Notes: generated by a model not told the origin, from the letters alone. Positions 18,771-61,068 are shown, counted from the stretch's first letter. The stretch: DNA of 64,000 nt from an uncultured Mycoplasmatota bacterium (GCA_949288035.1 CASEIJ010000022.1:23-64022); one strand, 5' to 3'. Program-made: numbers and translations.

Positions 18771-19097
18771 ATGAACGATAGAATTTTATTAACAACAAAA
18801 GATATTTTAGAAAAAGACTTCAAAATTGATACACGTGGATATCGTCCTCAAGAAGTAGACAAGTTTTTGGATATTATTATTCACGATTATGAAGAATATG
18901 AAGCTGTGATTTCTGATATGAAGAAAACACAAAAAGAAATTATGGAAGAAAATGCACGATTGAAACAAGAAAATAGAAGTCTTCATACGAAGTTAGATGT
19001 GTTAAGTGAAACAGGTGGCGAAAGTACGAATGTATCAAATGCCGATGTTTTAAGAAGATTATCTAACTTAGAAAAAATTATTTACGGAAAAGAATAA
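18771..19097 (+). CDS. gpsB: Cell-cycle protein GpsB (DivIVA-domain)
   Basis: TTKDILEKDFKIDTRGYRPQEVDKFLD, then a coiled coil. Lies directly upstream of rnpB, as in B. subtilis. ATG at 18771 follows GAGGTGG. Confidence 0.75.
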   Translation: MNDRILLTTKDILEKDFKIDTRGYRPQEVDKFLDIIIHDYEEYEAVISDMKKTQKEIMEENARLKQENRSLHTKLDVLSETGGESTNVSNADVLRRLSNLEKIIYGKE

Positions 19098-19450
19098 TAT
19101 TTTGACAAACGCTATATTCTTGTAATATAGAGGAAAGTCCATGCTCGCACAGTCTGTGATGGCTGTAGTGTTTGTGTGTAGGGAAAAAATAACCTACAGG
19201 AGAGAAATCTCACGGCTCTTTAAAAATCTAAGTACATTTGTATATGATTTGAAGAAGTATAAAAGTGCCAAAGTGACGATGCCTTTTTGAAATAAAAGGA
19301 GTGGAACGTGGTAAACCCCACAAGCGAGAAACCCAAATTTTGGTAGGGGAGCTTGAGTTAGAAAGAAACGAATTTCGCTCGGGATCAAGTAATTGATAGA
19401 TAAATGTTTGTCGCCTAGAAATAGGAACAGAACATGGCTTATAAAATATT
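19096..19450 (+). ncRNA. rnpB: RNase P RNA (type B, Firmicute-like); ends uncertain by about 15 nt
   Basis: GAGGAAAGTCCATGCTCGCAC at 19129-19149, GGTAAACCCC..GCGAGAAACCCAAATTTTGGTAGGGG, ACAGAACATGGCTTA near the 3' end. Candidate P1 pairing aatatttt (19096-19103) with aaaatatt (19443-19450). Confidence 0.8.
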
Positions 19451-21803: not shown

Positions 21804-21894
21804 TGGCGGAGTAGGAGAGATTTGAACTCTCGCGCCAGTTGCCCGACCTACACCCTTAGCAGGGGCGCCTCTTCAGCCTCTTGAGTACTACTCC
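21804..21894 (-). tRNA. tRNA-Ser(GCU)
   Basis: Reverse complement folds as GGAGTAG / D-arm / CGCCC-CTGCTAA-GGGTG / long variable arm / GAGAG-TTCAAAT-CTCTC / CTACTCC-G-CCA. Confidence 0.85.
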
Positions 21895-35384: not shown

Positions 35385-36188
35385 TTAAAAAATTCTAGTA
35401 ATAGATACACAGCCTGAGTATAGATCGTTTGGTACTAATCTTAAATCGACATCAGAAGTATTAATTAGTCGATAACTTGCTCCTGGAAGAGCTTCAAAGA
35501 TTGCATTTCCACTAATCGTACCAGTATCACAACAAGTTAATTTATTGTGCGTAGAAGAGTGTGCAATTAAGATATCTTCTGGCCAGAATTGGTGGAATTC
35601 AATACCTAAAGTTTTTGGTTCACAACTTTCATCATTCTTATCACTATGTCTTACATTAATCCACCAATGAATGATATAAATACCGGCTTCTGGAATTGAG
35701 AAGTCACCAGTGTTTGGATTATATGTAATTTTATTAGAGATGTTTGTTGTTTGGAATAAAACAGGTTGTTGTACACCGACAGTAGAATTGGTTTCATCAT
35801 GAACCATAGCATAGCTATCTAATAGTGTTCCTGGACCTGCAGGACCAGTCGCACCAGTTGCTCCGGTAGCTCCAGTGGCACCAGTAGCGCCAGTCGTACC
35901 TGTAGGTCCTTGAATACCTTGAGGACCGGTTGGACCTGTTACACCCGTTGCTCCAGTGGCCCCGGTAGCCCCAGTTGCACCTGTAGGTCCTTGAATACCT
36001 TGAGGACCAGTTGCTCCAGTTGCCCCAGTTGCTCCGGTAGCACCAGTATATCCTCTAGGACCAGTTGGCCCGGTTGGTCCAGTAGGACCAGTCGCACCTT
36101 TTTTACAGATGCAGTCAATGACTTTGCATAAGCATTCATCGTTTGATTTGTTTGTCCCATTTGTAATGTTTTCTATTGATTCGTTCAT
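35385..36188 (-). CDS. Collagen-like triple-helix repeat protein with BclA/C1q-like C-terminal domain (probable spore-surface protein)
   Basis: About 29 G-X-Y triplets ([22 protein letters not shown]...), then a beta-rich C-terminal domain. Cys-rich N-terminus [21 protein letters not shown]. Confidence 0.8.
35832..36098 (-). repeat. GXY (mainly GAT/GPT) collagen-like 9-bp periodic repeat tract
   Basis: Runs of ggtgctact / ggaccaact-type triplets. Internal duplication of [10 protein letters not shown](A/T)TGATGATGATG. Locally much more GC-rich than the surroundings. Confidence 0.85.
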
Positions 36189-49827: not shown

Positions 49828-50088
49828 ATGGAAACACTAAAAGTTTCATCAAAATCGAACCCAAATTCTGTGGCAGGAGCACTGGCAAATGCGGTGAGAG
49901 AACACGATAATGTAGAGATTCAAGCAATTGGTGCAGGGGCACTGAATCAAGCGATTAAAGCAATTGCGATTGCTCGAGGATTTGTTGCTCCCTCTGGAAA
50001 GAATCTAGTTTGTATTCCTGCATTTACAGATATTGTAATTGATGGGGAAGAAAGAACTGCCATTAAATTAATTGTAGAAAGTAAATAA
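49828..50088 (+). CDS. spoVS: Stage V sporulation protein S
   Basis: METLKVSSKSNPNSVAGALA...IQAIGAGALNQAIKAIAIARGFVAPSG...IPAFTDI.IDGEERTAIKLIVE is near-identical in pattern to B. subtilis SpoVS. Confidence 0.9.
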   Translation: METLKVSSKSNPNSVAGALANAVREHDNVEIQAIGAGALNQAIKAIAIARGFVAPSGKNLVCIPAFTDIVIDGEERTAIKLIVESK

Positions 50089-50175
50089 TACCCATTTGGG
50101 TATTTTTTGTTGATAAAAAGACATTTACAATATAATATAAAATTTAGTATAATAAAATTATATAGGGGTGATTGA

Positions 50176-51330
50176 ATGTTTCGTAGACGTTTTAATAATA
50201 AAAAAATAGATATTGAAAGTGTCAATGGAGCTTTGAGTTTGACCAATAAAATATTAAAGGTCGCATATATTTTAATTGTGATTATTGGTATTTATGCGAT
50301 TACATTGATTGGTAAAGAGTGGAATGTCAAAGAATTTCTATTTACAGTTCTTCGTATTTTATCACCACTTTTTGTAGGAATTGTAATTGCATGGTTATTT
50401 AATCCATTTGTTACATGGTTACAAAAGAAGGGAATACGACGAGGGATTGGAACAACACTGACTTATGCGCTTTTATTTAGTGTTTTATTCTTTATTATGC
50501 AGGCCATTATACCGATGTTAATTGATCAAGTAAATGAGTTTGTAAAAACATTACCAAGTGTTTTTCATACAGTGAAATATTGGATTGATGATATATTTAC
50601 AAGTATTGGGGAATTAGTAAACATGAATACATCTGGTATAGAGAAAGATATTTTTAAGGAAGTTGAAAACTTTGGAACTGGAATTGCAAAAGGATTACCA
50701 CAAATGACACTTAGTTTTGTATCTTCCGTATTCTCAGGAGCAGGAATTATTTTGATTGGTCTTGTCATTGGCTTTTATTTCTTACTTAGATTTGATAGTG
50801 CCGGGGATAGTATCTTTGAACTTGTACCAAAAAGATATCGTAAAGAGACAAAAGAATTATTTAGAACAGTTAATACCTCATTACAACGCTTTGTTCAGGG
50901 CGCATTAATTGACTGTACCGTTGTGTTTGTAGTGACTAGTGTAGGGCTATGGTTGGTTGGATTAAAAGCACCGTTGTTGTTTGGGTTGTTCTGTGGTATT
51001 ACCAATGTCATCCCATATGCAGGGCCATATATTGGAGGTTTTCCAGCTGTCATTGTTGGTTTTGCTCAATCACCAATGATTGGTTTTTTAACATTATTGG
51101 TGATTGTTGTCATTCAATTTGTAGAGGGAAATTTCTTCCAACCATTGATTATGAGTAAGACAACAAAGCTACATCCAGTAACGATTATGGTAGGACTTTT
51201 GGTGTTTGGACATTTCTGGGGAATACTTGGAATGGTAGTATCTACACCAATTATTGCGTCAATTAAATCAATTTTTATGTATTTTGATGAAAAATATGAT
51301 ATACTAGAAGCATCTGAAAGCGAAGAATAA
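50176..51330 (+). CDS. AI-2E family transporter (PerM-like permease)
   Basis: About 8 TM helices. NVIPYAGPYIGGFPAV and QFVEGNFFQPLIMSK motifs. Confidence 0.8.
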   Translation: MFRRRFNNKKIDIESVNGALSLTNKILKVAYILIVIIGIYAITLIGKEWNVKEFLFTVLRILSPLFVGIVIAWLFNPFVTWLQKKGIRRGIGTTLTYALLFSVLFFIMQAIIPMLIDQVNEFVKTLPSVFHTVKYWIDDIFTSIGELVNMNTSGIEKDIFKEVENFGTGIAKGLPQMTLSFVSSVFSGAGIILIGLVIGFYFLLRFDSAGDSIFELVPKRYRKETKELFRTVNTSLQRFVQGALIDCTVVFVVTSVGLWLVGLKAPLLFGLFCGITNVIPYAGPYIGGFPAVIVGFAQSPMIGFLTLLVIVVIQFVEGNFFQPLIMSKTTKLHPVTIMVGLLVFGHFWGILGMVVSTPIIASIKSIFMYFDEKYDILEASESEE

Positions 51331-51351
51331 GAGATATAGATAATTATATTC

Positions 51352-51511
51352 ATTTCAAAAGAGAGTCTATGGGTGGTGGAAATAGATAAATGGAATAATT
51401 ATTTGCTCCTCTTAGAGTGTAAGTAAAGCTTACCGGGGATACCCGTTATCATAATTAAGAACAAATAGGATGGTACCGCGTAATTCGCTCCTAGATTTAC
51501 GTGGTTTTTTT
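51352..51511 (+). promoter_or_regulatory. T-box riboswitch leader with terminator
   Basis: T-box core AATAGGATGGTACCGCG (51464-51480). Terminator ccgcgtaattc-gctccta-gatttacgtgg (51476-51504) plus TTTTTTT. AGAGAG and GGTGG elements of stem I upstream. Candidate GCU specifier at 51405-51407 is not secure. Confidence 0.65.
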
Positions 51512-51525
51512 ATGGGAGGAATCAT

Positions 51526-52083
51526 ATGAAGATAAAAGAAACAATACCACGTATCTATTTAATTTGTGGACGTGCTCGTCATGGGAAAGATGAGATTGCA
51601 AAAGCGATACAAGAATATTATTATAATTTAGATATGGATACGATGAATTTACGTTATGCACATTATATTAAAGAGTATGCGAAAAATATTACTGATTGGG
51701 ATGGTAGAGAAGAAACCAAACCTAGAGCGTTATTACAGATGCTTGGAACTGATATCATTAGAAAGAAAATTGATAATGATTTGTTTATTAAGCGTATGAT
51801 TGATGATGTGGCGGTATATGGATATTTTTTTGATGTGATTACTGTTTCTGATGGACGTTTTGTAGATGAGGTAGTAAAATTAAAAGAAGCGTATCCAAAT
51901 ACGGTTGTGATTCATGTATATCGACCTAATTTTGAGAGTGGGTTAAAGAAAGAAGAACTTGCTCATGCGACAGAACATGGTTTAGATGATTTCCACGATT
52001 ATGATTATGAGATTACTAATGATGGAACGTTAGAAGTTTTAAGAAAGAAAGTGTTTGATATATTAGAAAGGATTGAGAAGTAA
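51526..52083 (+). CDS. P-loop kinase resembling phage-type deoxynucleotide monophosphate kinases
   Basis: IYLICGRARHGKDEIA P-loop, LLQMLGTDIIRK, VSDGRF, HATEHGL. Confidence 0.45.
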   Translation: MKIKETIPRIYLICGRARHGKDEIAKAIQEYYYNLDMDTMNLRYAHYIKEYAKNITDWDGREETKPRALLQMLGTDIIRKKIDNDLFIKRMIDDVAVYGYFFDVITVSDGRFVDEVVKLKEAYPNTVVIHVYRPNFESGLKKEELAHATEHGLDDFHDYDYEITNDGTLEVLRKKVFDILERIEK

Positions 52084-53852
52084 TGAAAGATTTAAAGAAG
52101 TTATATACAGATTTTTTTGTGAGTAAGGGACATGCTTTGATTCCGTCTGCTCCAATTATTCCAGAAAATGATCCTACGTGTTTGTTTAATACAGCAGGGA
52201 TGCAACCACTAGTTCCATATTTATCAGGACAACCACATCCTTTAGGAACTCGTTTAACAGATTATCAGAAGTGTTTTCGTTTAACGGATTTAGATGAGAT
52301 TGGAGATACAACACATCATACTTTCTTTGAGATGTTAGGAAATTGGTCTTTAGGAGATTATTTTAAGAAAGAGAGTATTACATGGAGTTACGAGTTTTTA
52401 ACAAGTGTTTTAAATTTTCCAAAAGAAAGGCTTGCAGTGACTGTTTTTAAAGGGGATGGTATGATTCCAAGAGATGAAGAGAGTGCTAGGTTATGGGAGA
52501 GTTTAGGAATATCTAAAAAACATATTGCTTATCTTGGAAAAGAAGGAAATTGGTGGAGTCTTGGTGGAGGAGTAGGACCATGTGGACCTGATACTGAGAT
52601 TTTCTATTTCCGTAGTGATGATGAGATTCCTGAAGTGTTTGATCCAGAAGATGATCGTTGGGTTGAAATTTGGAATAATGTATTTACACAGTATCAAGGG
52701 AATGGAGATGGAACAGTCACTCCACTTGAGAAGAAGAATGTTGATACTGGTATGGGTGTAGAAAGAGTTACAGCGATACTAGAGGGTGTAAAAGATAATT
52801 ATGAGACGAGTTTATTCCGTGATATTATAAAATATATTGAGGAAGTATCTCATCATGATTATTATGATTTGGATTATCAAAGAGCAATGCGTATTATTGC
52901 TGATCATATGAGAGCAATTACGATTATTAGTGGAGATAATGCGAGAATTGTACCATCGAATACAGATCAAGGATATATTTTAAGACGTTTAATTCGTCGT
53001 GTGATTCGTTATGCAAAGAAGATTGATATTGATATTCATTCTGATTTTGATGTTGAAATTGCTAAGATGTATATTGAACAATTTAAGGGATATTATCACG
53101 AATTAGAGGCAAATCAAGAACATATTATGCAAGTATTAACGAATGAGAAAAAGAAATTTTCACGCACATTGGACAAAGGATTAAGAGAATTTGACAAGAT
53201 TGTATCAAAATTAAATGGGACAGAAATCGATGGGGTGACTGCCTTCCATTTATATGACACGTATGGATTTCCAATTGAGTTAACAGAAGAATTAGCTCAT
53301 GAAAAGAATATGACAGTTGATACCAAGGGATTTGATGAGAAATTTAAAGAACATCAAGAAAAGTCACGTGCTGGTTCAAAAGAACGTTTTAAAGGTGGAT
53401 TACAAAGTGATTCTGAAATGAATATTAAGTATCATACCGCTACCCATCTTTTAAATGCTGCACTAAAAAAAGTGATTGGTCCCGAATCTAATCAAATGGG
53501 TAGTAACATTACTGATGAGAGAATGCGTTTTGATTTCCCTTGTGATCATAAATTAACAGAAGAAGAAAAAAAGCAAGTAGAAGATTTAGTGAATCAATGG
53601 ATTAAAGATTCTATTCCAGTTACACACTATGAAGTATCAAAAGATGAAGCAGTGAAGATGGGTGCAGAAGCACAATTCATAGAACGTTATGGAGACCGTG
53701 TAACAGTATATCAAATTGGAGATGTATCACTAGAAATCTGTGGAGGACCTCACGTGTCTAATACAAGTGAACTTGGACATTTTAAAATAAAAAAGGAAGA
53801 GTCTAGTAGTGCTGGAGTAAGAAGAATTAAAGCAGTATTAACAAGTGAATAA
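52083..53852 (+). CDS. alaS: Alanine--tRNA ligase, compact form (catalytic, tRNA-recognition and editing domains; no C-Ala domain)
   Basis: FNTAGMQPL, HHTFFEMLGNWSLGDYFK, editing-site HTATHLL and CGGPHV. 589 aa. TAATG overlap with the upstream kinase gene. Confidence 0.8.
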   Translation: MKDLKKLYTDFFVSKGHALIPSAPIIPENDPTCLFNTAGMQPLVPYLSGQPHPLGTRLTDYQKCFRLTDLDEIGDTTHHTFFEMLGNWSLGDYFKKESITWSYEFLTSVLNFPKERLAVTVFKGDGMIPRDEESARLWESLGISKKHIAYLGKEGNWWSLGGGVGPCGPDTEIFYFRSDDEIPEVFDPEDDRWVEIWNNVFTQYQGNGDGTVTPLEKKNVDTGMGVERVTAILEGVKDNYETSLFRDIIKYIEEVSHHDYYDLDYQRAMRIIADHMRAITIISGDNARIVPSNTDQGYILRRLIRRVIRYAKKIDIDIHSDFDVEIAKMYIEQFKGYYHELEANQEHIMQVLTNEKKKFSRTLDKGLREFDKIVSKLNGTEIDGVTAFHLYDTYGFPIELTEELAHEKNMTVDTKGFDEKFKEHQEKSRAGSKERFKGGLQSDSEMNIKYHTATHLLNAALKKVIGPESNQMGSNITDERMRFDFPCDHKLTEEEKKQVEDLVNQWIKDSIPVTHYEVSKDEAVKMGAEAQFIERYGDRVTVYQIGDVSLEICGGPHVSNTSELGHFKIKKEESSSAGVRRIKAVLTSE

Positions 53853-53880
53853 AAGTCAGTTTCAAAAACTGACTTTTTTG
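53852..53880 (+). terminator. Intrinsic terminator after alaS
   Basis: agtcagtt-tcaaa-aactgact followed by TTTTTT. Confidence 0.7.
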
Positions 53881-53912
53881 TATATAATATAGTTATTCGG
53901 GGAGGTACGACT

Positions 53913-54503
53913 ATGGGTAAGATTTCTCACGCAATTCAGATGTTAAATTATCTTAATACAGGAAATAAGTATACAGTAAAAGAATTATCTCAAAAACTGG
54001 GTATTACAGAACGCATGGTTAGATATTATAAACAAGAATTAGAAGCAGATGGTATTCCCATTGAAACTTTTATGGGACCAAATGGTGGCTATTATATGAT
54101 CCAAAGAAAAAGTATATATCATCAATTTAATAAATATGATATAGAGTTATTAGAAGATATTTCAGGAATATTAAAAGAATCTAATTATATGTACTTTGAT
54201 AAATACGAGAAATTAGTCCATCGAATAAAACATGTGTATGATGTGGAAGAGGAAAGAAGTAAATATTTTATTGTAAACGGAATTTCCAACCAATCTGACA
54301 TTTATCGTCTATTAACGGAAGCGATACAAAATCATAAAAGAGTATTAATTTTATATCAGAATTTGAAGAGACAGTGGAAAGAAAGATATATTCATCCTAT
54401 TCAAATTTTTGAATATGATCATCGTTTTTATGTAACTGCTTTTTGTGAGTTGAGAAATGATATTAGACACTTTGAATTTAGTAGAATGAAAATTGTTGAG
54501 TGA
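53913..54503 (+). CDS. HTH plus WYL-domain transcriptional regulator (YafY/BrxR/CapW-like architecture, short form)
   Basis: N-terminal wHTH YTVKELSQKLGITERMVRYYKQELEADGIPIE. C-terminal WYL-like KRVLILYQN...ERYIHPIQIFEYDHRFYVTAFCELRNDIRHFEFSRM. Confidence 0.7.
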   Translation: MGKISHAIQMLNYLNTGNKYTVKELSQKLGITERMVRYYKQELEADGIPIETFMGPNGGYYMIQRKSIYHQFNKYDIELLEDISGILKESNYMYFDKYEKLVHRIKHVYDVEEERSKYFIVNGISNQSDIYRLLTEAIQNHKRVLILYQNLKRQWKERYIHPIQIFEYDHRFYVTAFCELRNDIRHFEFSRMKIVE

Positions 54504-54613
54504 ATGTAAGAAGGAATATTTTATTTCTTTTTTTAATTAAGACATAATATTTCCTATATATTTGATATGATAAAGATAACAAATAACAGAGCATGTTTAG
54601 AAAGGAATATATA

Positions 54614-56578
54614 ATGAGTGTAGTCGGGGTAGGAGATTTAGTTACAGATTTTTATTATAAAAATGGAAAATTGGTTGGAATAAACGGAGGAATGACTTCC
54701 CACAACATAATCGCGAATATTGCTAAGTTAGGTTTTGAAACATCTGTTTATGGTGTTTGTGGAAATGATATGGCAGGTATTATAGCACGAGATAGTTTAA
54801 AGGAAGTAGGAACGAATATTGATGATGTAAAAATCATTGATGACATCAATACACGTTGTTTTCACGTGTCATATCAAGAGTTAAATGGTAAATTGGAATT
54901 CACATCTAAAAAACGATGTCCGATTTGTAAAGTAAAAAGATGGTATGATGAAAGTAAAATAGATGTGAAAGAAATCTTAAAACAAATTCATGAAGATGAT
55001 GTTTTGGTTTTTGATAATTTAAATGAGAAAAATCAAATGATTATAGATCATTGTGATAATAGAAAAATGTTGGACTTGGGACAATACTTTGAATTGGAAA
55101 ATTATAGTGATGATGAAATTGTTAAAAAAATGAAAAATAAATTTGATTTTATCAACTTAAATGAACGAGTTGAGAAATATTTAAAAAGTAGATTTTCTCT
55201 ACAGACGTTAGAAGAAATATATTGTATATTACAGCCGAAAATGATCATTGTTACTAGAGGAAAAAAAGGCTCAGATTTCGTTTTTGACGATCATAAAATA
55301 AACAAAATATTAAGTAACCCATCAATGGAAATTGATCCAACAGGTGCTGGTGATGCATTTTTCGCAACGTTTATTAGTGAGTATGTAAAAAATAACTATA
55401 TGATTGATGATGAGTTTATAGATTCCACTTTTGAAAAAGCTACTAAACTTACAACCCAAGTTGTAAAAAAGTTTGGAGCAAGAGGACATATTCAATCTTT
55501 GTATAAAATAAAAAAAGTAAAAGAGAAGTGTACTTGTGAAGATTTTGAACCAGTCGTTCGTAAACAGATAAAAAGATGCAGCATTAATGTCAATCATTTA
55601 GAAGCAAGAATCATTCATGCTGTGAATAGTAGTGCTTATGATAGATTAGTTAAAATTGATTTTAAAAGTTTAAATCATAGTATTTTTGTGGGAACAGGTG
55701 GATCTTTTGCTGGGGCAAAGTTTTCATCTAAACTGATTAATCAGTTGTATGGAACAAATACAATTGCATTATATCCTAGAGATTTATATTATAGAAACAA
55801 TCATAGTGTAGATGCAGTATTTTTATTTACTTATTCTGGGACAACAAATGATTTGATTATATCATCAAGTTTCATAGATAATAATAAAAAATACATTATA
55901 ACAAAAGGTGAATTACAAAAAATTGTTACTAAAACGGGAATATCTAAAAATAATATTGTTTCATATCGGACAAATGCAAATAAAGGAAAAGAAAGAGGCT
56001 TTTTATCATTTGAAGGTGCTTTAGCTCCTGCTAGTTTATTTTTAAAACTATATTTTGAAAATAAATCACGAAATGATATTGAAGATTTTATCAAAGATAG
56101 TATAAACTATTGGAAAAAATATTTTGATAAATATTTTAAAGAAAATAAGAAAGTGCTAAAAAAATTTTTAAAAGAAGGAAATAGTTTTAATATTTTTACA
56201 GGAGACTTCACAGAATCTGCAGCTAGTGATTTAGAAAGTAAAATAATCGAGTCAGGTATATACAATTGTTTAATTCACGAAAAGAAAAATTTTTCACATG
56301 GAAGATTTATTAATTATGAGCATTTAAGTTGCAAGAAAAATATTTATTTTAAACAAAAAACTACAAGTTCATATGAACAAAAATTATTGGAATACTTAAA
56401 AAAGGATGAAAATTTAATGATAGAAAGTAGATATGATGGTATTTTATGTGAATATGATTTATTAGTTGCATCACAGTATTTAATTTATGCTATTTCTAAT
56501 TTTATTGATATTGATTGTTCTAAACCAACATATAGTGAAAATGCAATGAAAATTTATTTTTACAAAGGAAGTCTATAA
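54614..56578 (+). CDS. Fusion protein: PfkB-family (ribokinase-like) kinase with CxxC insertion plus C-terminal double SIS (phosphosugar-binding) domain
   Basis: GVGDLVTDFY and DPTGAGDAFFATF (PfkB signatures). KKRCPICKVKRW insert. SIS-like VGTGGSFAGAKF and LFTYSGTTNDLI. ATG at 54614 is preferred (AAAGGA RBS); the ORF-track start is 54593. Confidence 0.7.
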   Translation: MSVVGVGDLVTDFYYKNGKLVGINGGMTSHNIIANIAKLGFETSVYGVCGNDMAGIIARDSLKEVGTNIDDVKIIDDINTRCFHVSYQELNGKLEFTSKKRCPICKVKRWYDESKIDVKEILKQIHEDDVLVFDNLNEKNQMIIDHCDNRKMLDLGQYFELENYSDDEIVKKMKNKFDFINLNERVEKYLKSRFSLQTLEEIYCILQPKMIIVTRGKKGSDFVFDDHKINKILSNPSMEIDPTGAGDAFFATFISEYVKNNYMIDDEFIDSTFEKATKLTTQVVKKFGARGHIQSLYKIKKVKEKCTCEDFEPVVRKQIKRCSINVNHLEARIIHAVNSSAYDRLVKIDFKSLNHSIFVGTGGSFAGAKFSSKLINQLYGTNTIALYPRDLYYRNNHSVDAVFLFTYSGTTNDLIISSSFIDNNKKYIITKGELQKIVTKTGISKNNIVSYRTNANKGKERGFLSFEGALAPASLFLKLYFENKSRNDIEDFIKDSINYWKKYFDKYFKENKKVLKKFLKEGNSFNIFTGDFTESAASDLESKIIESGIYNCLIHEKKNFSHGRFINYEHLSCKKNIYFKQKTTSSYEQKLLEYLKKDENLMIESRYDGILCEYDLLVASQYLIYAISNFIDIDCSKPTYSENAMKIYFYKGSL

Positions 56579-56610
56579 AAAATATGCGATTTATTTCGCA
56601 TATTTTTTTA
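56577..56610. terminator. Bidirectional hairpin between convergent island genes
   Basis: aatatgcga-tttatt-tcgcatatt (56581-56604), flanked by an A-run and a T-run. Confidence 0.6.
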
Positions 56611-57091
56611 ATTTTTGTTTATCTTTTTGAATATTTTCACTGGATAATTGATGTAGTTGTTCTTGTAAAGATTTACGATAGATAGCTGAGTATAGATTTG
56701 GAGATATTGTCATGTTAGGACATGATACTTTCTTTTCTCCCACTTGAATTTGATATTCTTGAAAATGATTTGTATCATCTATGATAATATAATCACATGG
56801 AATCTCTTGAATTCTATCATGTGTTGGTAGTTCATAAAAATAGTGACTTGGTTTTTCTTGATATTGTTGTACAGTCATATAAAAAATATTAAATTTAAAT
56901 TTTTCTAAGATGGTTCTTTCATAGTATTGTTTTAATTTAAATAATTCTTCTGGATAAAGTTGGTTTACATTGATACTATTTGTATCTTTGTCCATGTGTA
57001 AATTACAAAATTTAGATAATTGATCCTCTGCTTTTTCTACATTTTCTTTTAATCTTTTATATTCATTTAAGATGATGTCATTTGTTTCCAT
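56591..57091 (-). CDS. Hypothetical protein (coiled-coil N-part)
   Basis: 166-aa ORF with a GGGAGG RBS on the minus strand. No recognisable motif. Confidence 0.5.
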   Translation of the reverse strand: METNDIILNEYKRLKENVEKAEDQLSKFCNLHMDKDTNSINVNQLYPEELFKLKQYYERTILEKFKFNIFYMTVQQYQEKPSHYFYELPTHDRIQEIPCDYIIIDDTNHFQEYQIQVGEKKVSCPNMTISPNLYSAIYRKSLQEQLHQLSSENIQKDKQKLKKYAK

Positions 57092-57203
57092 ATTTATACC
57101 TCCCTAAAGATTGTATCATATTTCTTTGAAATTCTGATAATTAGATTGCAATCAATGTCGAAACATGTTAAAATAAAGACGTATTCATAAAGTAGGTGAG
57201 ACT

Positions 57204-57452
57204 ATGAAAGAAGAAACAAAAGTATATCACATCGAGGATATTAGAGAAGGACTCATTGGTGATTGTATTACGAAAGTAATTGCAATCTTAGAAGAGCGTG
57301 GTTATGATGCAATGACACAACTAGTAGGGTATTTAATGAGTGGAGATCCTGGTTATATTACGAGTCATAAAGAGGCACGTAATATGATTATGCGTTATGA
57401 TCGTGCTGAAATATTAGAGTTTTTAATTCATCATTATATGGATCATCGATGA
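57204..57452 (+). CDS. ireB: IreB-family regulatory phosphoprotein (UPF0297)
   Basis: VIAILEERGYDAMTQLVGYLMSGDPGYITSHKEARNMI. Confidence 0.75.
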   Translation: MKEETKVYHIEDIREGLIGDCITKVIAILEERGYDAMTQLVGYLMSGDPGYITSHKEARNMIMRYDRAEILEFLIHHYMDHR

Positions 57453-57868
57453 GAGTTTTAGGATTAGATTTAGGTACTAGAACGCTTGGTTTAGCCATTT
57501 CAGACGAAACAAAGACAATTGCTACGCCTCTTTATACGATTCGGTATGAAGAAGAGGATTATGAGCATTTATTTGATGAATTACAAAAAGTGTTGAATGA
57601 GTTTTCCATTGAAAAATTTGTTTTAGGATTACCTAAAAATATGGATAATAGTATGGGAGAACATGCACTCTTGTCAGTAGATTTTAAAGAGAAGTTAGAA
57701 GAGAGATTTCAGTTACCTGTTATTTTACAAGATGAGAGGTTGACGACTGTAGAAGCAACAAATTATATGGTGAAGTTTGATATATCTAGAAAAAAAAGAA
57801 AGAAGAAAATAGATAGTTTGGCTGCTAATATTATATTACAAACTTATCTAGATAAAGGGAGGATTTAA
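57449..57868 (+). CDS. ruvX: Putative pre-16S rRNA nuclease / Holliday junction resolvase-like YqgF
   Basis: MRVLGLDLGTRTLGLAISDE..., DERLTTVEA. Confidence 0.85.
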   Translation: MRVLGLDLGTRTLGLAISDETKTIATPLYTIRYEEEDYEHLFDELQKVLNEFSIEKFVLGLPKNMDNSMGEHALLSVDFKEKLEERFQLPVILQDERLTTVEATNYMVKFDISRKKRKKKIDSLAANIILQTYLDKGRI

Positions 57869-57870
57869 GT

Positions 57871-58173
57871 ATGCAAGAAGAAAAAATGACATTTAAAGTA
57901 AAAGGTCAAGATGGAAAAGAAGTAGAGTGCGAAGTATTATTTACATTTGAAAGTGAAGAAACAAAGAAAAATTATATGGTGTATACAGATAATACTGTAG
58001 ATGAAAATGGAAATACAAAGGTGTATGCTTCTATTTATACACCAAATACAAAAACAACGATGTTAGAACCAATTGAAACAGAAAAAGAATGGAAAATTAT
58101 TCAAACAATATTAGATGAATTACAAGCATCTGCTAGAGAAGAAGCAAATCAAGAAGGAAACGAGCAAGCATAA
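57871..58173 (+). CDS. DUF1292-family protein (YrzB-like)
   Basis: ECEVLFTFESEETKKNYMVYTDN. Position after ruvX matches B. subtilis yrzB. Confidence 0.7.
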   Translation: MQEEKMTFKVKGQDGKEVECEVLFTFESEETKKNYMVYTDNTVDENGNTKVYASIYTPNTKTTMLEPIETEKEWKIIQTILDELQASAREEANQEGNEQA

Positions 58174-58191
58174 AGCTCGTTTTTGGTGTGT

Positions 58192-59274
58192 ATGAAAAAA
58201 AGAAGAAAATTAAAGAAAAAACCAGTGATTATTTTAGTAATTAGTATATTACTAATTGTTTTTTTCATTTGGTTTATAACATTGTTTGGTGCTGTATCAA
58301 GTAAATCAGAGCCAGTAACATTAACTGTTGAAAAAGGACAAAATTATTATTCGATTGCAGCGACTTTAAAAGAAAAGGGATTAATCCGTTCTGAATTGGC
58401 TTATAAATTATACTTGCGTATGCAGAAATTATCTCCATTAAAAGAAGGAAACTATAATTTGAATAAAAATATGGATTTAAAAACTTTGATTCATAGTTTA
58501 GCAGGTGATGAGAAATTTCATACTGGAGAAATTACGATTACTTTTCCAGAAGGAAAAAATATGAGACAAGTTGCGGCTATTATTGCAAATCATACGAATC
58601 ATACAGAGGAAGAAGTATTTACTCTATTACAAGATGAGACTTATTTAAATGAATTGATTCAAAAGTATTGGTTTATTACGGATGAAATTAAAAATCCAAG
58701 TATTTATTATTCTCTAGAAGGATATTTATTACCTGATACATATCGTTTTACAAATGAAGATGTTGAAATAAAGAAAATTTTTGAGAAAATGTTAGATGCT
58801 ATGAATCAGAAATTAACACCATATCAATCTCAAATTGAAGCAAGTAATTATTCATTTCATCAAATTTTAACAGTTGCTTCTATGTCAGAATTAGAGGCAA
58901 GTACTGATAGTGATCGTAGTATGGTATCACGTGTTTTTTATAACAGATTAGCGCAAAATATGACTCTAGGTAGTGATGTTACAACTTATTATGGAGCTAA
59001 AATAAATATTGGAGAACGTGATTTATATATGTCAGAAATTACTGAAGCCAATGCTTATAATACACGTAGTGCCGCTTCTAGTGGACATTTACCAGTAGGC
59101 CCGATTTGTAACCCTGGAATTCAGACAATTATAGGAGCGATTAATCCAGAAGCAAATAATTACTATTATTTTGTAGCCGATAAAAATAAAAAAGTATATT
59201 TTACTGAAACAAGTAGAGAACATGAAAATATTGTTGCAAAATTAAAAGAACAAGGTTTGTGGTTAACATGGTAA
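58192..59274 (+). CDS. mltG: Endolytic murein transglycosylase MltG (YceG-like)
   Basis: N-terminal TM. TFPEGKNMRQVA, LEGYLLPDTY, ASMSELEA, YNTR...GLP.GPICNPG. Confidence 0.85.
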   Translation: MKKRRKLKKKPVIILVISILLIVFFIWFITLFGAVSSKSEPVTLTVEKGQNYYSIAATLKEKGLIRSELAYKLYLRMQKLSPLKEGNYNLNKNMDLKTLIHSLAGDEKFHTGEITITFPEGKNMRQVAAIIANHTNHTEEEVFTLLQDETYLNELIQKYWFITDEIKNPSIYYSLEGYLLPDTYRFTNEDVEIKKIFEKMLDAMNQKLTPYQSQIEASNYSFHQILTVASMSELEASTDSDRSMVSRVFYNRLAQNMTLGSDVTTYYGAKINIGERDLYMSEITEANAYNTRSAASSGHLPVGPICNPGIQTIIGAINPEANNYYYFVADKNKKVYFTETSREHENIVAKLKEQGLWLTW

Positions 59275-59846
59275 TAAAAGATTTAGAAGATTATGCAAAA
59301 GAAAATCATGTACCAATTATGGAACATGATGGGATTGAATTTTTAACACAATATATAAAGGAACACGAAGAAATCAAAAATATTTTAGAAATTGGTTGTG
59401 CCATTGGTTATTCAGCTATTCGTATGGCTTTAATCAGAGATGATATTCATGTAACAACGATTGAAAGAGATCAAGAACGTTATTTGAAAGCAAAAGAAAA
59501 TGTAAGTACATTTCATTTAGAAGATCGCATTACGATTTTATTTCAAGATGCATTAGAAGTAGAACTAAACGAACAATATGATTTCATATTTATCGATGCA
59601 GCTAAAAGTCAGTATATTAAATTCTTTGAAAAATTTACACCATTGTTAAGTGAAAATGGGGTAGTTTTCTCAGATAACTTATTATTTCATGGTTATACCA
59701 AACAAAAAGAGAGAATAGAAAGTAAAAATTTAAGACAATTAGTACAGAAAATTAGAAAATATATTGTTTATCTAAAAGAAAATAAGAACTATGTGACTGA
59801 ATTTTATGATGTTGGTGATGGGATTGCTGTAACAAAGAGACGTTGA
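59259..59846 (+). CDS. SAM-dependent O-methyltransferase (YrrM/TrmR-like)
   Basis: ILEIGCAIGYSAIRMA SAM motif, FIFIDAAK. The start may instead be the ATG at 59268. Confidence 0.7.
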   Translation: MVNMVIKDLEDYAKENHVPIMEHDGIEFLTQYIKEHEEIKNILEIGCAIGYSAIRMALIRDDIHVTTIERDQERYLKAKENVSTFHLEDRITILFQDALEVELNEQYDFIFIDAAKSQYIKFFEKFTPLLSENGVVFSDNLLFHGYTKQKERIESKNLRQLVQKIRKYIVYLKENKNYVTEFYDVGDGIAVTKRR

Positions 59847-59860
59847 TTGTCTCTTTTTTT
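59835..59860 (+). terminator. Intrinsic terminator
   Basis: aagagac-gttgatt-gtctctt followed by TTTTT. Confidence 0.6.
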
Positions 59861-59915
59861 GACAAATAAAATAAAAAGTGATATTCTATTTCGCAGGTTT
59901 AAAGGGGGCATTGTT

Positions 59916-60998
59916 ATGAAGAGGAAGTATTTACAATTAAAAATATTGTGGGCACTTTTGTGTGCTAGTAGTATTACTGGTCTAACAATGGTGAAAGCAA
60001 ATCAAAATGAGGTAGATAGTGACGTTGCTGAAACGACGCTTGAGAATAGTGAATTATTAAATCGTTTTCATGATTTTTTAGATGATACGGATAGTGAATT
60101 TGAAACTTATGTACAAAATGTAGCTACTACTTTAAGTTTAGATCCAAATACTGCACTTTCTTACGTTTATCAAAATATTTCAAGTTTATCAAGTTCTAAA
60201 CAAATTAGTGCAGATATTGTTCGTATGTTAGCACAATTAAAATACAAAGATGTATCATTACCAAGTAATATGGGAACAAATTGGACGCTTACTGATTATT
60301 CTAATTATTTAAATACAGAAGAAGGGCAAAGACAATTACAACTTTGTAATATATATGGAATGGATCCCCATTTATTATTTGCACTAGAGAAAGTAGAATC
60401 AAACTTAGATCATTATAATCACATCGGTACTTATGATGCGAATGGGAAGTACTTATTTGCAGTTGGAATTACGCAACAAGAAAGAGCTAATTTTTACAGT
60501 GTAAATGCCAGTACGGAAGAAATTGCCTCTAAACCACCACGTACTGGATATAATTATGAGACAAATCAAATAGATTCTATTCCTTTATGTGAGGATCAAT
60601 TAAACGACTTTGATACCAATGTCAAATTAGGAATTATGGCTTTAAATGGAGCTCTGGGATTATCAGATTATGATATTTCATATGCTTTAGATATTTATAA
60701 CAAAGGAAAAGTAGGTGCTGATCGTTTTCGTGAACAAGGAATTGTCAGTGGAAGTCCTATTTATGTATCATCGGTATATCAAAATATTGTAGTACCATAT
60801 TTTGTATTTCAGACGAGTCCACAAGAAATGATGATTGTTGATTTAAATACTAATCAGAAATTCTACTGTTCGTTACTTACAAATGATGTATTAAAACCAT
60901 ATTGTGATGAATATCTTTCTTTTTTAACACAATTAAATGAACAAAAGATAAGTCAAGATGTGATTGATACAGAAGTGCAAAAGAGTTTGACTAAATAA
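59916..60998 (+). CDS. Secreted protein with lytic-transglycosylase (SLT)-like domain
   Basis: Signal peptide MKRKYLQLKILWALLCASSITGLTMVKA. ALEKVESNLD...AVGITQQ...YALDIYNKG resembles the SLT E-S / G-x-x-Q / AYNAG motifs. ATG at 59916 follows AAGGGGG. Confidence 0.5.
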   Translation: MKRKYLQLKILWALLCASSITGLTMVKANQNEVDSDVAETTLENSELLNRFHDFLDDTDSEFETYVQNVATTLSLDPNTALSYVYQNISSLSSSKQISADIVRMLAQLKYKDVSLPSNMGTNWTLTDYSNYLNTEEGQRQLQLCNIYGMDPHLLFALEKVESNLDHYNHIGTYDANGKYLFAVGITQQERANFYSVNASTEEIASKPPRTGYNYETNQIDSIPLCEDQLNDFDTNVKLGIMALNGALGLSDYDISYALDIYNKGKVGADRFREQGIVSGSPIYVSSVYQNIVVPYFVFQTSPQEMMIVDLNTNQKFYCSLLTNDVLKPYCDEYLSFLTQLNEQKISQDVIDTEVQKSLTK

Positions 60999-61068
60999 TT
61001 GGTTTACATATGAGAGATTTATTTCTCTTTTTTTTGGAATTTGGTATAATAAGAAAGTTGGTGATGTT

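Follow-up and report, generated by a model that had tools for sequence, protein, structure and literature searches.

What is the cassette that separates alaS from ireB in an uncultured Mycoplasmatota bacterium, and what might it do for its host? We ask this question for a stretch of 64,000 nt (GCA_949288035.1 CASEIJ010000022.1:23-64022), which we call the window. All coordinates are positions in that whole stretch. The cassette contains two genes. W encodes a regulator with a WYL domain, and F encodes a fusion of a PfkB-like kinase with a double SIS module. A preliminary description of this DNA had read the cassette as a complete system. It is instead a strain-variable, stripped-down two-gene form of a conserved operon. 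The two genes that normally lie between W and F are missing from the window: h, which encodes a small HAD nucleotidase (159 aa), and P, which encodes a predicted nucleotidase fused to a phosphoribosyltransferase (PRTase; 777 aa).

Three alleles exist in one and the same species. We found contigs of this species by an exact-sequence look-up of the window's IreB, read 23 of them and tallied 22 places. The contigs representing the three alleles have an identical IreB, and their flanks are 96-99% identical. The reduced allele (alaS-W-F-gene 3-ireB) is the commonest form, present in 18 of the 22 places. This layout is seen in L091-L094, in L098 (the same record as L011) and in L100, which is identical to the window. 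Two places carry the full allele (alaS-W-h-P-F-gene 3-ireB; L095 and L097) and two carry the empty allele (alaS-gene 3-ireB; L096 and L099). Mapping presence and absence at this junction had been suggested as a check. The contigs without the insert show directly that the cassette was inserted between alaS and ireB.

The empty allele also sets the limits of the insert. L096 and L099 match the window at 50000-53854 and 56569-60999 (blastn), with an overlap of 12 nt. The insert lies at ~53855-56580 on the plus strand, right behind the alaS stop codon, and consists of W and F. Its edges carry an imperfect 12-nt direct repeat, AAGTGAATAAAA (53843-53854) and AAGTCTATAAAA (56569-56580). Except for this repeat, we found no integrase, transposase, att site or inverted repeats in or beside the cassette. 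Rfam and tRNA scans gave no match inside it. Gene 3 and the terminator at 56577-56608 are kept in the empty allele and hence are resident. The three-gene island of 53881-57200 that had been proposed thus loses its third gene.

The insert brings its own terminator and promoter region ahead of W. We found two terminator-like hairpins where 0.4 are expected, and they confirm the alaS terminator and the bidirectional terminator described earlier. The first (53851-53877, plus strand) would end alaS transcription and has a 12-bp stem followed by a T-run. It is borne by the cassette and is not present in the empty allele, where alaS runs straight into the second hairpin. The second (56577-56608) works in both directions and is resident beyond its first few bases, as judged from a hairpin search and the junction alignment. 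A promoter-like site, TTCAAA-16-TATAAT (53861-53888; 10/12 consensus match), overlaps the first hairpin just 5' of W. The low GC content that had been taken as deviant is real: the cassette has 26.5% GC, compared to a window mean of 30.3% (sd 1.9%, equal-size windows), and is among the lowest 2.6% of windows. The deviation is modest, however, at ~2 sd.

In the reduced allele ~55 nt (54575-54631, plus strand) stand in place of the 2.85-kb h and P stretch of the full allele (blastn against L095 and allele alignment). This junction segment provides F with its first six codons and with a new ribosome-binding site (RBS; GAAAGGA). The same deletion junction is found in all five reduced alleles that were aligned (the window, L011 and L091-L093). 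L094, L098 and L100 share the gene layout of the other reduced alleles. A tblastn search detected no second copy of P or h in the 64-kb window.

The missing genes are common in related species. The family has 182 matching stretches in a collection of species-representative genomes. We analyzed 80 species-representative loci, all from metagenome-assembled genomes of gut Bacilli with small genomes (~1.2-1.3 Mb); 68 of these loci have a usable upstream view. The order W-h-P-F, with an optional acetyltransferase and an optional esterase between P and F, occurs in 41 of the 68. Four loci read W-P-F and three read h-P-F or P-F. In eight loci W is followed by F, with or without the esterase, and in ten F stands alone or behind the esterase. 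P is carried in 48 of the 68 loci, leaves no trace in 18 and persists only as remnants in two. Even among the loci with a full layout some have a split P, with open reading frames (ORFs) of 436-526 aa.

Flanking genes are rarely in common: 140 flanking proteins fall into 112 clusters. Hence, the operon occupies a different site in almost every species. Together with presence and absence inside one species, this bears out the proposal of an accessory, horizontally mobile module set into a string of core genes. For every locus with a reduced operon or an orphan F, the best match is a full-operon locus (L011 98%, L059 97%, L018 99%, L029/L030 95%). Thus P and h have been lost repeatedly and independently, and F was kept at full length.

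One such loss may be visible in progress. Two otherwise syntenic contigs of another species, L105 (5687-8004) and L106 (5686-8004), differ in P, which is intact in one (772 aa) and split into 377 and 311 aa in the other. P appears to have been caught during pseudogenization, with F intact.

What do the lost genes encode? P has a DIDGT HAD-IIB core at its N-terminus and a phosphoribosyl pyrophosphate (PRPP) motif, VLLDDNLLTGKT, at its C-terminus. We modeled its structure with AlphaFold2 (AF2), using P sequences taken from the homology search (predicted local distance difference test, pLDDT, 77.5). The model is closest to the inosine monophosphate (IMP)-specific 5'-nucleotidase ISN1 (Foldseek E 1.6e-7), and then to HADs of the trehalose-6-phosphate phosphatase and phosphomannomutase types. 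The C-terminus gives weak Foldseek matches to the PRTases APRT and ComF. We read P as an ISN1-like HAD nucleotidase joined via a helical middle to a type-I PRTase. The product of h matches the PHROG family "5'-3' deoxyribonucleotidase" (1.4e-15), has the HAD motifs DxDG...T...K...DD and is probably a HAD resembling 5'(3')-deoxyribonucleotidases. In L001 (6668-7988) and nine other species loci a chloramphenicol acetyltransferase (CAT)-like acetyltransferase (PF00302, 4.5e-30) and an Abhydrolase_2 esterase lie between P and F. Several further species loci have the esterase without the acetyltransferase. Together, the two enzymes might add an acetyl group to a product and remove it again.

F (54614-56578, plus strand) is the gene that stays intact. 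All its close homologues are 654 aa long, which places the start at the ATG at 54614 (MSVVG...) and not at 54593. The product has 654 aa, slightly less than the 655-661 aa first estimated. A PfkB/ribokinase-like kinase that carries a CPxC insertion takes up residues ~1-300; linker cysteines (C306/C308) and a double SIS module (~320-654) follow. The kinase is recognized by Pfam (PF00294, 3.6e-13), and in an AF2 model of F (pLDDT 91.5) the kinase half is closest to the adenosine kinase of M. tuberculosis and to ribokinases (Foldseek E 1e-16, target template modeling score ~0.7). With the whole model as query the best 50 Foldseek matches are all to the kinase half, so that the assignment of the SIS half rests on sequence profiles.

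These profiles were built from an alignment of 36 diverse full-length homologues (22-80% identical to the window protein). In the full-length profile the N-terminal half matches PfkB kinases and the C-terminal half matches the double-SIS proteins 1j5x and 2aml, the latter over positions 358-666 of 684. When the C-terminal half is compared to the PDB on its own, it matches 1j5x (6e-8), 2aml (1e-6), 8eol and 3hba (1e-4), the FrlB-like 3eua (5e-4) and also GlmS/GFAT. The 8eol and 3hba matches cover positions 19-288 of the 332-position profile, as expected of two tandem SIS lobes. The fusion of a PfkB kinase with a double SIS module, as it had been read from the DNA, is therefore confirmed by Pfam, Foldseek and profiles.

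Conservation within the family agrees with this layout. The kinase residues D12, G26, N31, G244 and D247 (GAGD) are invariant in the 36 homologues; they represent the N-terminal sugar-binding motif D...GG...N and the catalytic GAGD with its anion hole and base. So are G360, G362 and S364 (GTGGS), E541, E546, K558, H562, G563 and R564, all of which are present in the window protein. The cysteine pairs of the CPICK insertion and of the linker, noticed in the preliminary description, are nearly invariant as CPxC and C..C. In the phosphate loop of the first SIS lobe (YSGTTND in the window, SYSGxTxD in the family consensus) S408 and G409 are nearly invariant. The second lobe carries the family motif DLESKxxESG...HEKKDFSHGRF, in which E546 and H562 show no variation and K543 almost none, with the spacing K-x2-E-x15-H. 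At the position expected for an NxxE (Mg/phosphate) motif the window protein has NLNE, in a column that varies among distant family members.

The closest named counterpart is the pair FrlD and FrlB of E. coli and B. subtilis. It consists of the same two folds in the same order, a kinase and then a phospho-sugar amine isomerase or deglycase. F shares the SxSGxT phosphate loop and has a putative E/K/H motif in the second SIS lobe, and there are weak direct matches to 3eua and 1j5x (above) and to the NCBIfam model NF007321 (9e-10). Annotators at the Joint Genome Institute labeled distant homologues of F "ribokinase / FrlB-like". More broadly, the SIS half resembles the double-SIS group of the GlmS isomerase, AgaS and NagB-II. 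In contrast to FrlD and FrlB, F joins both activities on one chain with two conserved cysteine pairs. It scores far below every equivalog cut-off (38 bits compared to 247 for NF007321). No locus has the FrlA transporter, the FrlC epimerase or the FrlR regulator. The partner of F is a nucleotidase/PRTase and not a sugar-utilization gene, and the distant loci lie in mobile elements, several of them beside defence genes. Hence, of the analogy first drawn, the pair of folds stands, and membership in a fructosamine pathway is unsupported.

F is under purifying selection. Between reduced alleles of the species the ratio of nonsynonymous to synonymous substitution rates (dN/dS) of F is 0.16-0.18; the values for W range from 0.04 to 0.16. 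Because F is intact, has its own new RBS and is under purifying selection, we infer that it still works as an enzyme in the window. There it may have a retained antidote or immunity function, or it may serve as a stand-alone kinase-deglycase.

W (53913-54503, plus strand; 196 aa) is a helix-turn-helix (HTH) and WYL regulator, as first described. Pfam places HTH_11 at residues 9-60 (2e-7) and WYL at 130-195 (6e-15), and the PADLOC model PDLC01457, a generic WYL accessory model, matches at 2e-27. The nearest solved structures are the WYL domains of PafBC and BrxR, both weak matches. Of the 68 species loci with enough upstream DNA in view, 53 have W ahead of the operon. W is adjacent to the operon, with a conserved intergenic region.

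A hairpin with a U-run follows directly 3' of the W stop codon (54508-54533, plus strand; RNA folding and allele alignment). Its folding energy is -7.1 kcal/mol in the window and -10.5 to -14.4 kcal/mol in the other alleles. The stem is kept by paired changes between alleles (GGAAUA/UAUUUC and GAAGCA/UGCUUC among the window, L011, L093 and L095). We read it as a probable weak terminator or attenuator that separates W from whatever gene or genes follow.

WYL regulators are known from defence islands, BrxR with BREX and CapW with CBASS. Like these, W lies immediately upstream of a strain-variable accessory operon and on the same strand. However, regulators of the BrxR and CapW type have ~290-330 aa and a C-terminal WCX extension. 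W ends with its WYL domain (the match reaches residue 195 of 196) and lacks the WCX dimerization domain, and its homologues have only 195-201 aa. Furthermore, the genes next to W form no catalogued defence system.

How far does the family extend beyond the gut Bacilli? Our searches recovered ~1,100 F and ~600 P sequence clusters. A search with F over 1.8 billion cluster representatives yielded 109 clusters at E<1e-30, which comprise full-length fusions down to ~25% identity as well as stand-alone kinase and SIS halves. Distant homologues (25-45% identity, PF00294+PF01380) are rare singletons. Upstream DNA is visible for 22 distant loci; in 17 of these a ~800-aa homologue of P (Hydrolase_3 + Pribosyltran) is found directly upstream of F, and it overlaps F in the loci examined. 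Hence, P directly upstream of F is the core that recurs in other phyla.

These distant P-F pairs travel with mobile elements, namely an integrative and conjugative element (ICE) with a type IV secretion system and Prim-Pol, Mu-transposase/TniB elements and integrases. Several are beside bona fide defence systems. We ran PADLOC on 141 neighboring proteins and obtained HmaA (E = 0), HmaC (7e-184), a type III methyltransferase (E = 0) and a type IIG restriction-modification (RM) protein. The Thoeris proteins ThsA (3e-190) and ThsB (2e-112) were matched too, and L104 has a ThsB match of 4e-46. Other neighbors are SIR2_2, TIR_2, transposases and TraG. In ~6-7 of the 22 distant P-F loci a hallmark Thoeris, Hma, type III or IIG RM protein or a BrxP-like protein is located within 10 kb, and the control has none. 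This control consists of the 65 housekeeping proteins in the window, for which all PADLOC matches are of generic ATPase and HTH types (best 1.6e-37). The distant contexts keep alive the idea of a candidate novel defence system.

Distant environmental P-F pairs lack the WYL gene. W followed by F occurs again in two distant lineages that are unrelated to each other (L107 and L135). Downstream of the L107 pair an 802-aa protein was considered as a displaced P and rejected (hhalign probability 0.2%). L135 is an environmental contig; in its segment 2-2947 a fragment of F precedes a WYL gene and a full F follows it, which looks like a tandem or rearranged W-F locus. In two metagenome contigs (L122/L124, from WNGQ/WNGL) tblastn finds a full-length F match right after an intact P, in a region with no long ORF under genetic code table 11. 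This F could be degraded, or the contigs could use an alternative genetic code.

The cassette family belongs to no catalogued system. Only W was matched in PADLOC v2.0.0. PHROGs hold only generic PfkB and WYL families for the cassette, with no function given. In the published full text we found no description of this PfkB-SIS, WYL and PRTase gene combination. Carriage by phages or plasmids also left little trace. A phage origin was considered and rejected: searching the window F against 50,697 phage records (tblastn) gave no match, and a scan of IMG/VR gave one weak relative with 23% identity. As to plasmids, a distant F homologue had no match in PLSDB.

What could such an operon do? We favor, with slightly less than even confidence, the reading that the full operon would be an undescribed conflict system that acts on the nucleotide pool and is most likely aimed at phages. 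W would keep the operon silent and release it upon a nucleic-acid or nucleotide cue. P and h would convert PRPP and (deoxy)nucleoside monophosphates into nucleosides, and this would be the depleting or toxic arm. The PfkB half of F would phosphorylate a ribosyl or ketosamine product and hand it over to the SIS half. There an aldose-ketose (Amadori) isomerization or deglycation of the GlmS/FrlB type would complete or neutralize the chemistry. In gut Bacilli the core of P and F would have gained W, a short WYL regulator, and h as another nucleotidase. Every part would act on nucleotides, nucleosides or phospho-sugars.

The asymmetric loss fits this reading: P goes, and F stays, is selected and forms the majority allele, which is what one expects of a toxin/antidote pair. 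A narrower claim, which we regard as doubtful, assigns the roles. The P-F pair would be an unrecognized conflict system based on nucleotide or nucleoside chemistry, in which P is toxic or depleting and F neutralizes. The alleles would then be producer, immune and sensitive, or armed, antidote-only and naive, and the window would carry the antidote-only majority form.

Enzymes of the PRTase and HAD classes have turned up repeatedly in defence systems that are validated, among them ShosT, type III retrons and Ophion (10.1101/2025.09.30.679545), and DS-9 and DS-32 (10.1101/2025.01.08.631726). The toxicity of ShosT requires PRPP binding (PMC12961424). Like the PRTase effectors ShosT of ShosTA, type III retrons, OpnC of Ophion and DS-32A, the full operon (and not the window) has a protein with a type-I PRTase motif and, linked to it, a second, possibly counteracting gene, and is carried in defence and mobile contexts. 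Unlike in these systems, the PRTase of P is fused to an ISN1-like HAD nucleotidase, and the partner F is a kinase-isomerase and not a DprA-like, reverse-transcriptase, radical S-adenosylmethionine or NADAR protein. No PADLOC model for ShosT or retron PRTases matches P.

A second parallel is offered by Ter-linked genes. For these the Aravind group, as summarized in PMC7824862, has proposed that PRTase and HAD phosphoesterase genes make a nucleoside-like signal. The systems share with the full operon a nucleobase PRTase and one or more HAD phosphoesterases in a conflict-associated cluster, which implies a route from base and PRPP to nucleotide to nucleoside. Our operon differs in that it lacks TerB, TerC, TerD and TelA as well as ATP-grasp and lyase partners. 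Its PRTase and HAD also form one chain, which is tied to the PfkB-SIS enzyme F.

Several observations weigh against a conflict system. The link to defence is guilt by association in the ~6-7 of 22 distant loci. In the gut Bacilli clade the operon sits among housekeeping genes, and with 182 stretches it is spread more widely than most defence systems. PADLOC-DB v2.0.0 has no model that matches F, P or h. All enzymes of the operon are of ordinary metabolic types, and WYL regulators also govern non-defence genes. The agreement of the K-x2-E-x15-H spacing in the second SIS lobe with that of the catalytic residues K485, E488 and H504 in E. coli GlmS was judged by eye. The window holds only W and F, so whatever needs P cannot happen there, and the same is true of any mechanism that needs h. 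Finally, the reduced allele is the majority, which suggests that F is useful alone, possibly in ordinary metabolism.

The alternative that survives best builds on this last point. The operon may be an accessory metabolic cassette for salvage or detoxification of a nucleobase, nucleoside or amino-sugar (Amadori-type) compound of the gut. We consider this a serious rival, if on balance unlikely. P and h would interconvert base, nucleotide and nucleoside, F would phosphorylate and then deglycate or isomerize, and W would sense a metabolite; the window would keep the kinase-deglycase step only. A kinase followed by a SIS deglycase or deaminase is a known sequence of steps, as in FrlD and FrlB, or AgaS with tagatose-6-phosphate kinase. 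The standard metabolic folds of all the enzymes speak for this alternative, as does the wide occurrence of the family in a clade of gut Bacilli whose ~1.2-1.3-Mb genomes probably make them dependent on salvage. That F alone is selected and forms the majority allele is easiest explained by a stand-alone benefit.

Other observations speak against a metabolic cassette. More than 100 loci were examined, and no transporter, permease or downstream catabolic gene is linked to the family in any of them. The lack of a transporter or catabolic partner that was first noted in the window thus extends to all these loci, and homologues are not found in operons for sugars or Amadori products with transporters. 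The genomic position changes in almost every species, and presence varies inside one species. Distant homologues are rare singletons, and the distant P-F pairs are cargo of ICEs, transposons and integrase elements beside Thoeris, Hma and RM systems. Besides, with PRTase and nucleotidase on a single chain, a nucleoside would be made from PRPP, at an energy cost that would be wasteful in salvage.

Alternatively, the three alleles could be a producer/immunity polymorphism, which we consider improbable. The full operon would make a toxic nucleoside-like compound by the PRTase and then the nucleotidase, and optional acetylation and de-acetylation would give a pro-drug cycle. F would be the self-resistance enzyme, which phosphorylates and destroys the compound. 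Strains with the full allele would be producers, those with the reduced allele resistant cheaters and those with the empty allele sensitive, in a rock-paper-scissors game with the window as a resistant non-producer. Exactly three alleles share this locus within a single species. The loss of P and h is repeated and asymmetric, and elsewhere P has been split or frameshifted (L105 compared to L106, and the ORFs of 436-526 aa), whereas F is intact and selected. The CAT-like acetyltransferase and the esterase are optional members. PRTase and HAD phosphoesterase pairs have been proposed as makers of nucleoside-like metabolites in the Ter-linked systems, as summarized in PMC7824862. On the other hand, the operon has no exporter, none of the tailoring enzymes typical of nucleoside antibiotics and no sign of a product that leaves the cell. 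The same asymmetry is expected of a toxin-antitoxin-like defence system. The parallel of acetyltransferase and esterase with nucleoside-antibiotic self-resistance is a presumed one.

That W and F are nonfunctional, decaying leftovers of the deletion of h and P is very unlikely: the window lacks the usual distant partner of F, remnants of P occur in several species and F diverges faster than its flanks (92% compared to 98% amino acid identity to L011), but no reduced allele has a truncated F or W, both genes have low dN/dS (above), every family-invariant residue of F is kept, the deletion junction produced a proper RBS and start codon, and the reduced allele is the commonest form, with W-F and F-only layouts found again in many other species as well as far from the clade (L107, L135).

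The series of armed, F-only and naive alleles is a ready-made natural experiment by which the question can be put to a direct test. Should the full operon serve in defence or as toxin and immunity, its enzymatic logic would be new to bacterial conflict systems, as it combines conversion of PRPP and nucleotides to nucleosides with a kinase and an Amadori-type isomerase. To our knowledge, almost nothing is known of immunity in the small-genome, uncultured gut Bacilli. Even if the operon is metabolic, F and P are two sizeable uncharacterized enzyme families with a clear gene-linkage signal.

The genes around the insert are resident in all three alleles. Gene 3 (56591-57091, minus strand; 166 aa) is convergent and unfamiliar, as first described, with no match in Pfam, NCBIfam, PADLOC or PHROG. 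It is a lineage-specific gene: of the 80 species loci, L011, which comes from the same species as the window, is the sole one to carry it. We considered it as a diverged copy of the 159/162-aa HAD and rejected this (BLASTP E 0.2). Beyond it, ireB-ruvX-DUF1292-mltG form the 3' flank from 57204. On the 5' side alaS (52083-53852) encodes a short protein of 589 aa of the NF002436/PRK01584 type, without the C-terminal part of the canonical 870-aa AlaRS. Its start overlaps by one base (ATGA) with a phage-type gene similar to deoxynucleoside monophosphate kinases (51526-52083; Pfam DNMK 1.3e-15, phrog_139 5.8e-38).

Elsewhere in the window SpoVS, SpoIIP and a germination protease indicate a spore-former. 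A collagen-like protein with GxT repeats (35385-36188, minus strand; 267 aa) has 41.9% GC, the maximum of the window. Its likeness to exosporium proteins of the BclA type was judged by eye only. BclA_C proteins also occur near F genes in relatives (L005). A tRNA-Ser(GCT) of 91 nt is located at 21804-21894 (minus strand) by ARAGORN and is not listed by the Rfam scan at gathering threshold. A class B RNase P RNA is found at 19097-19446.

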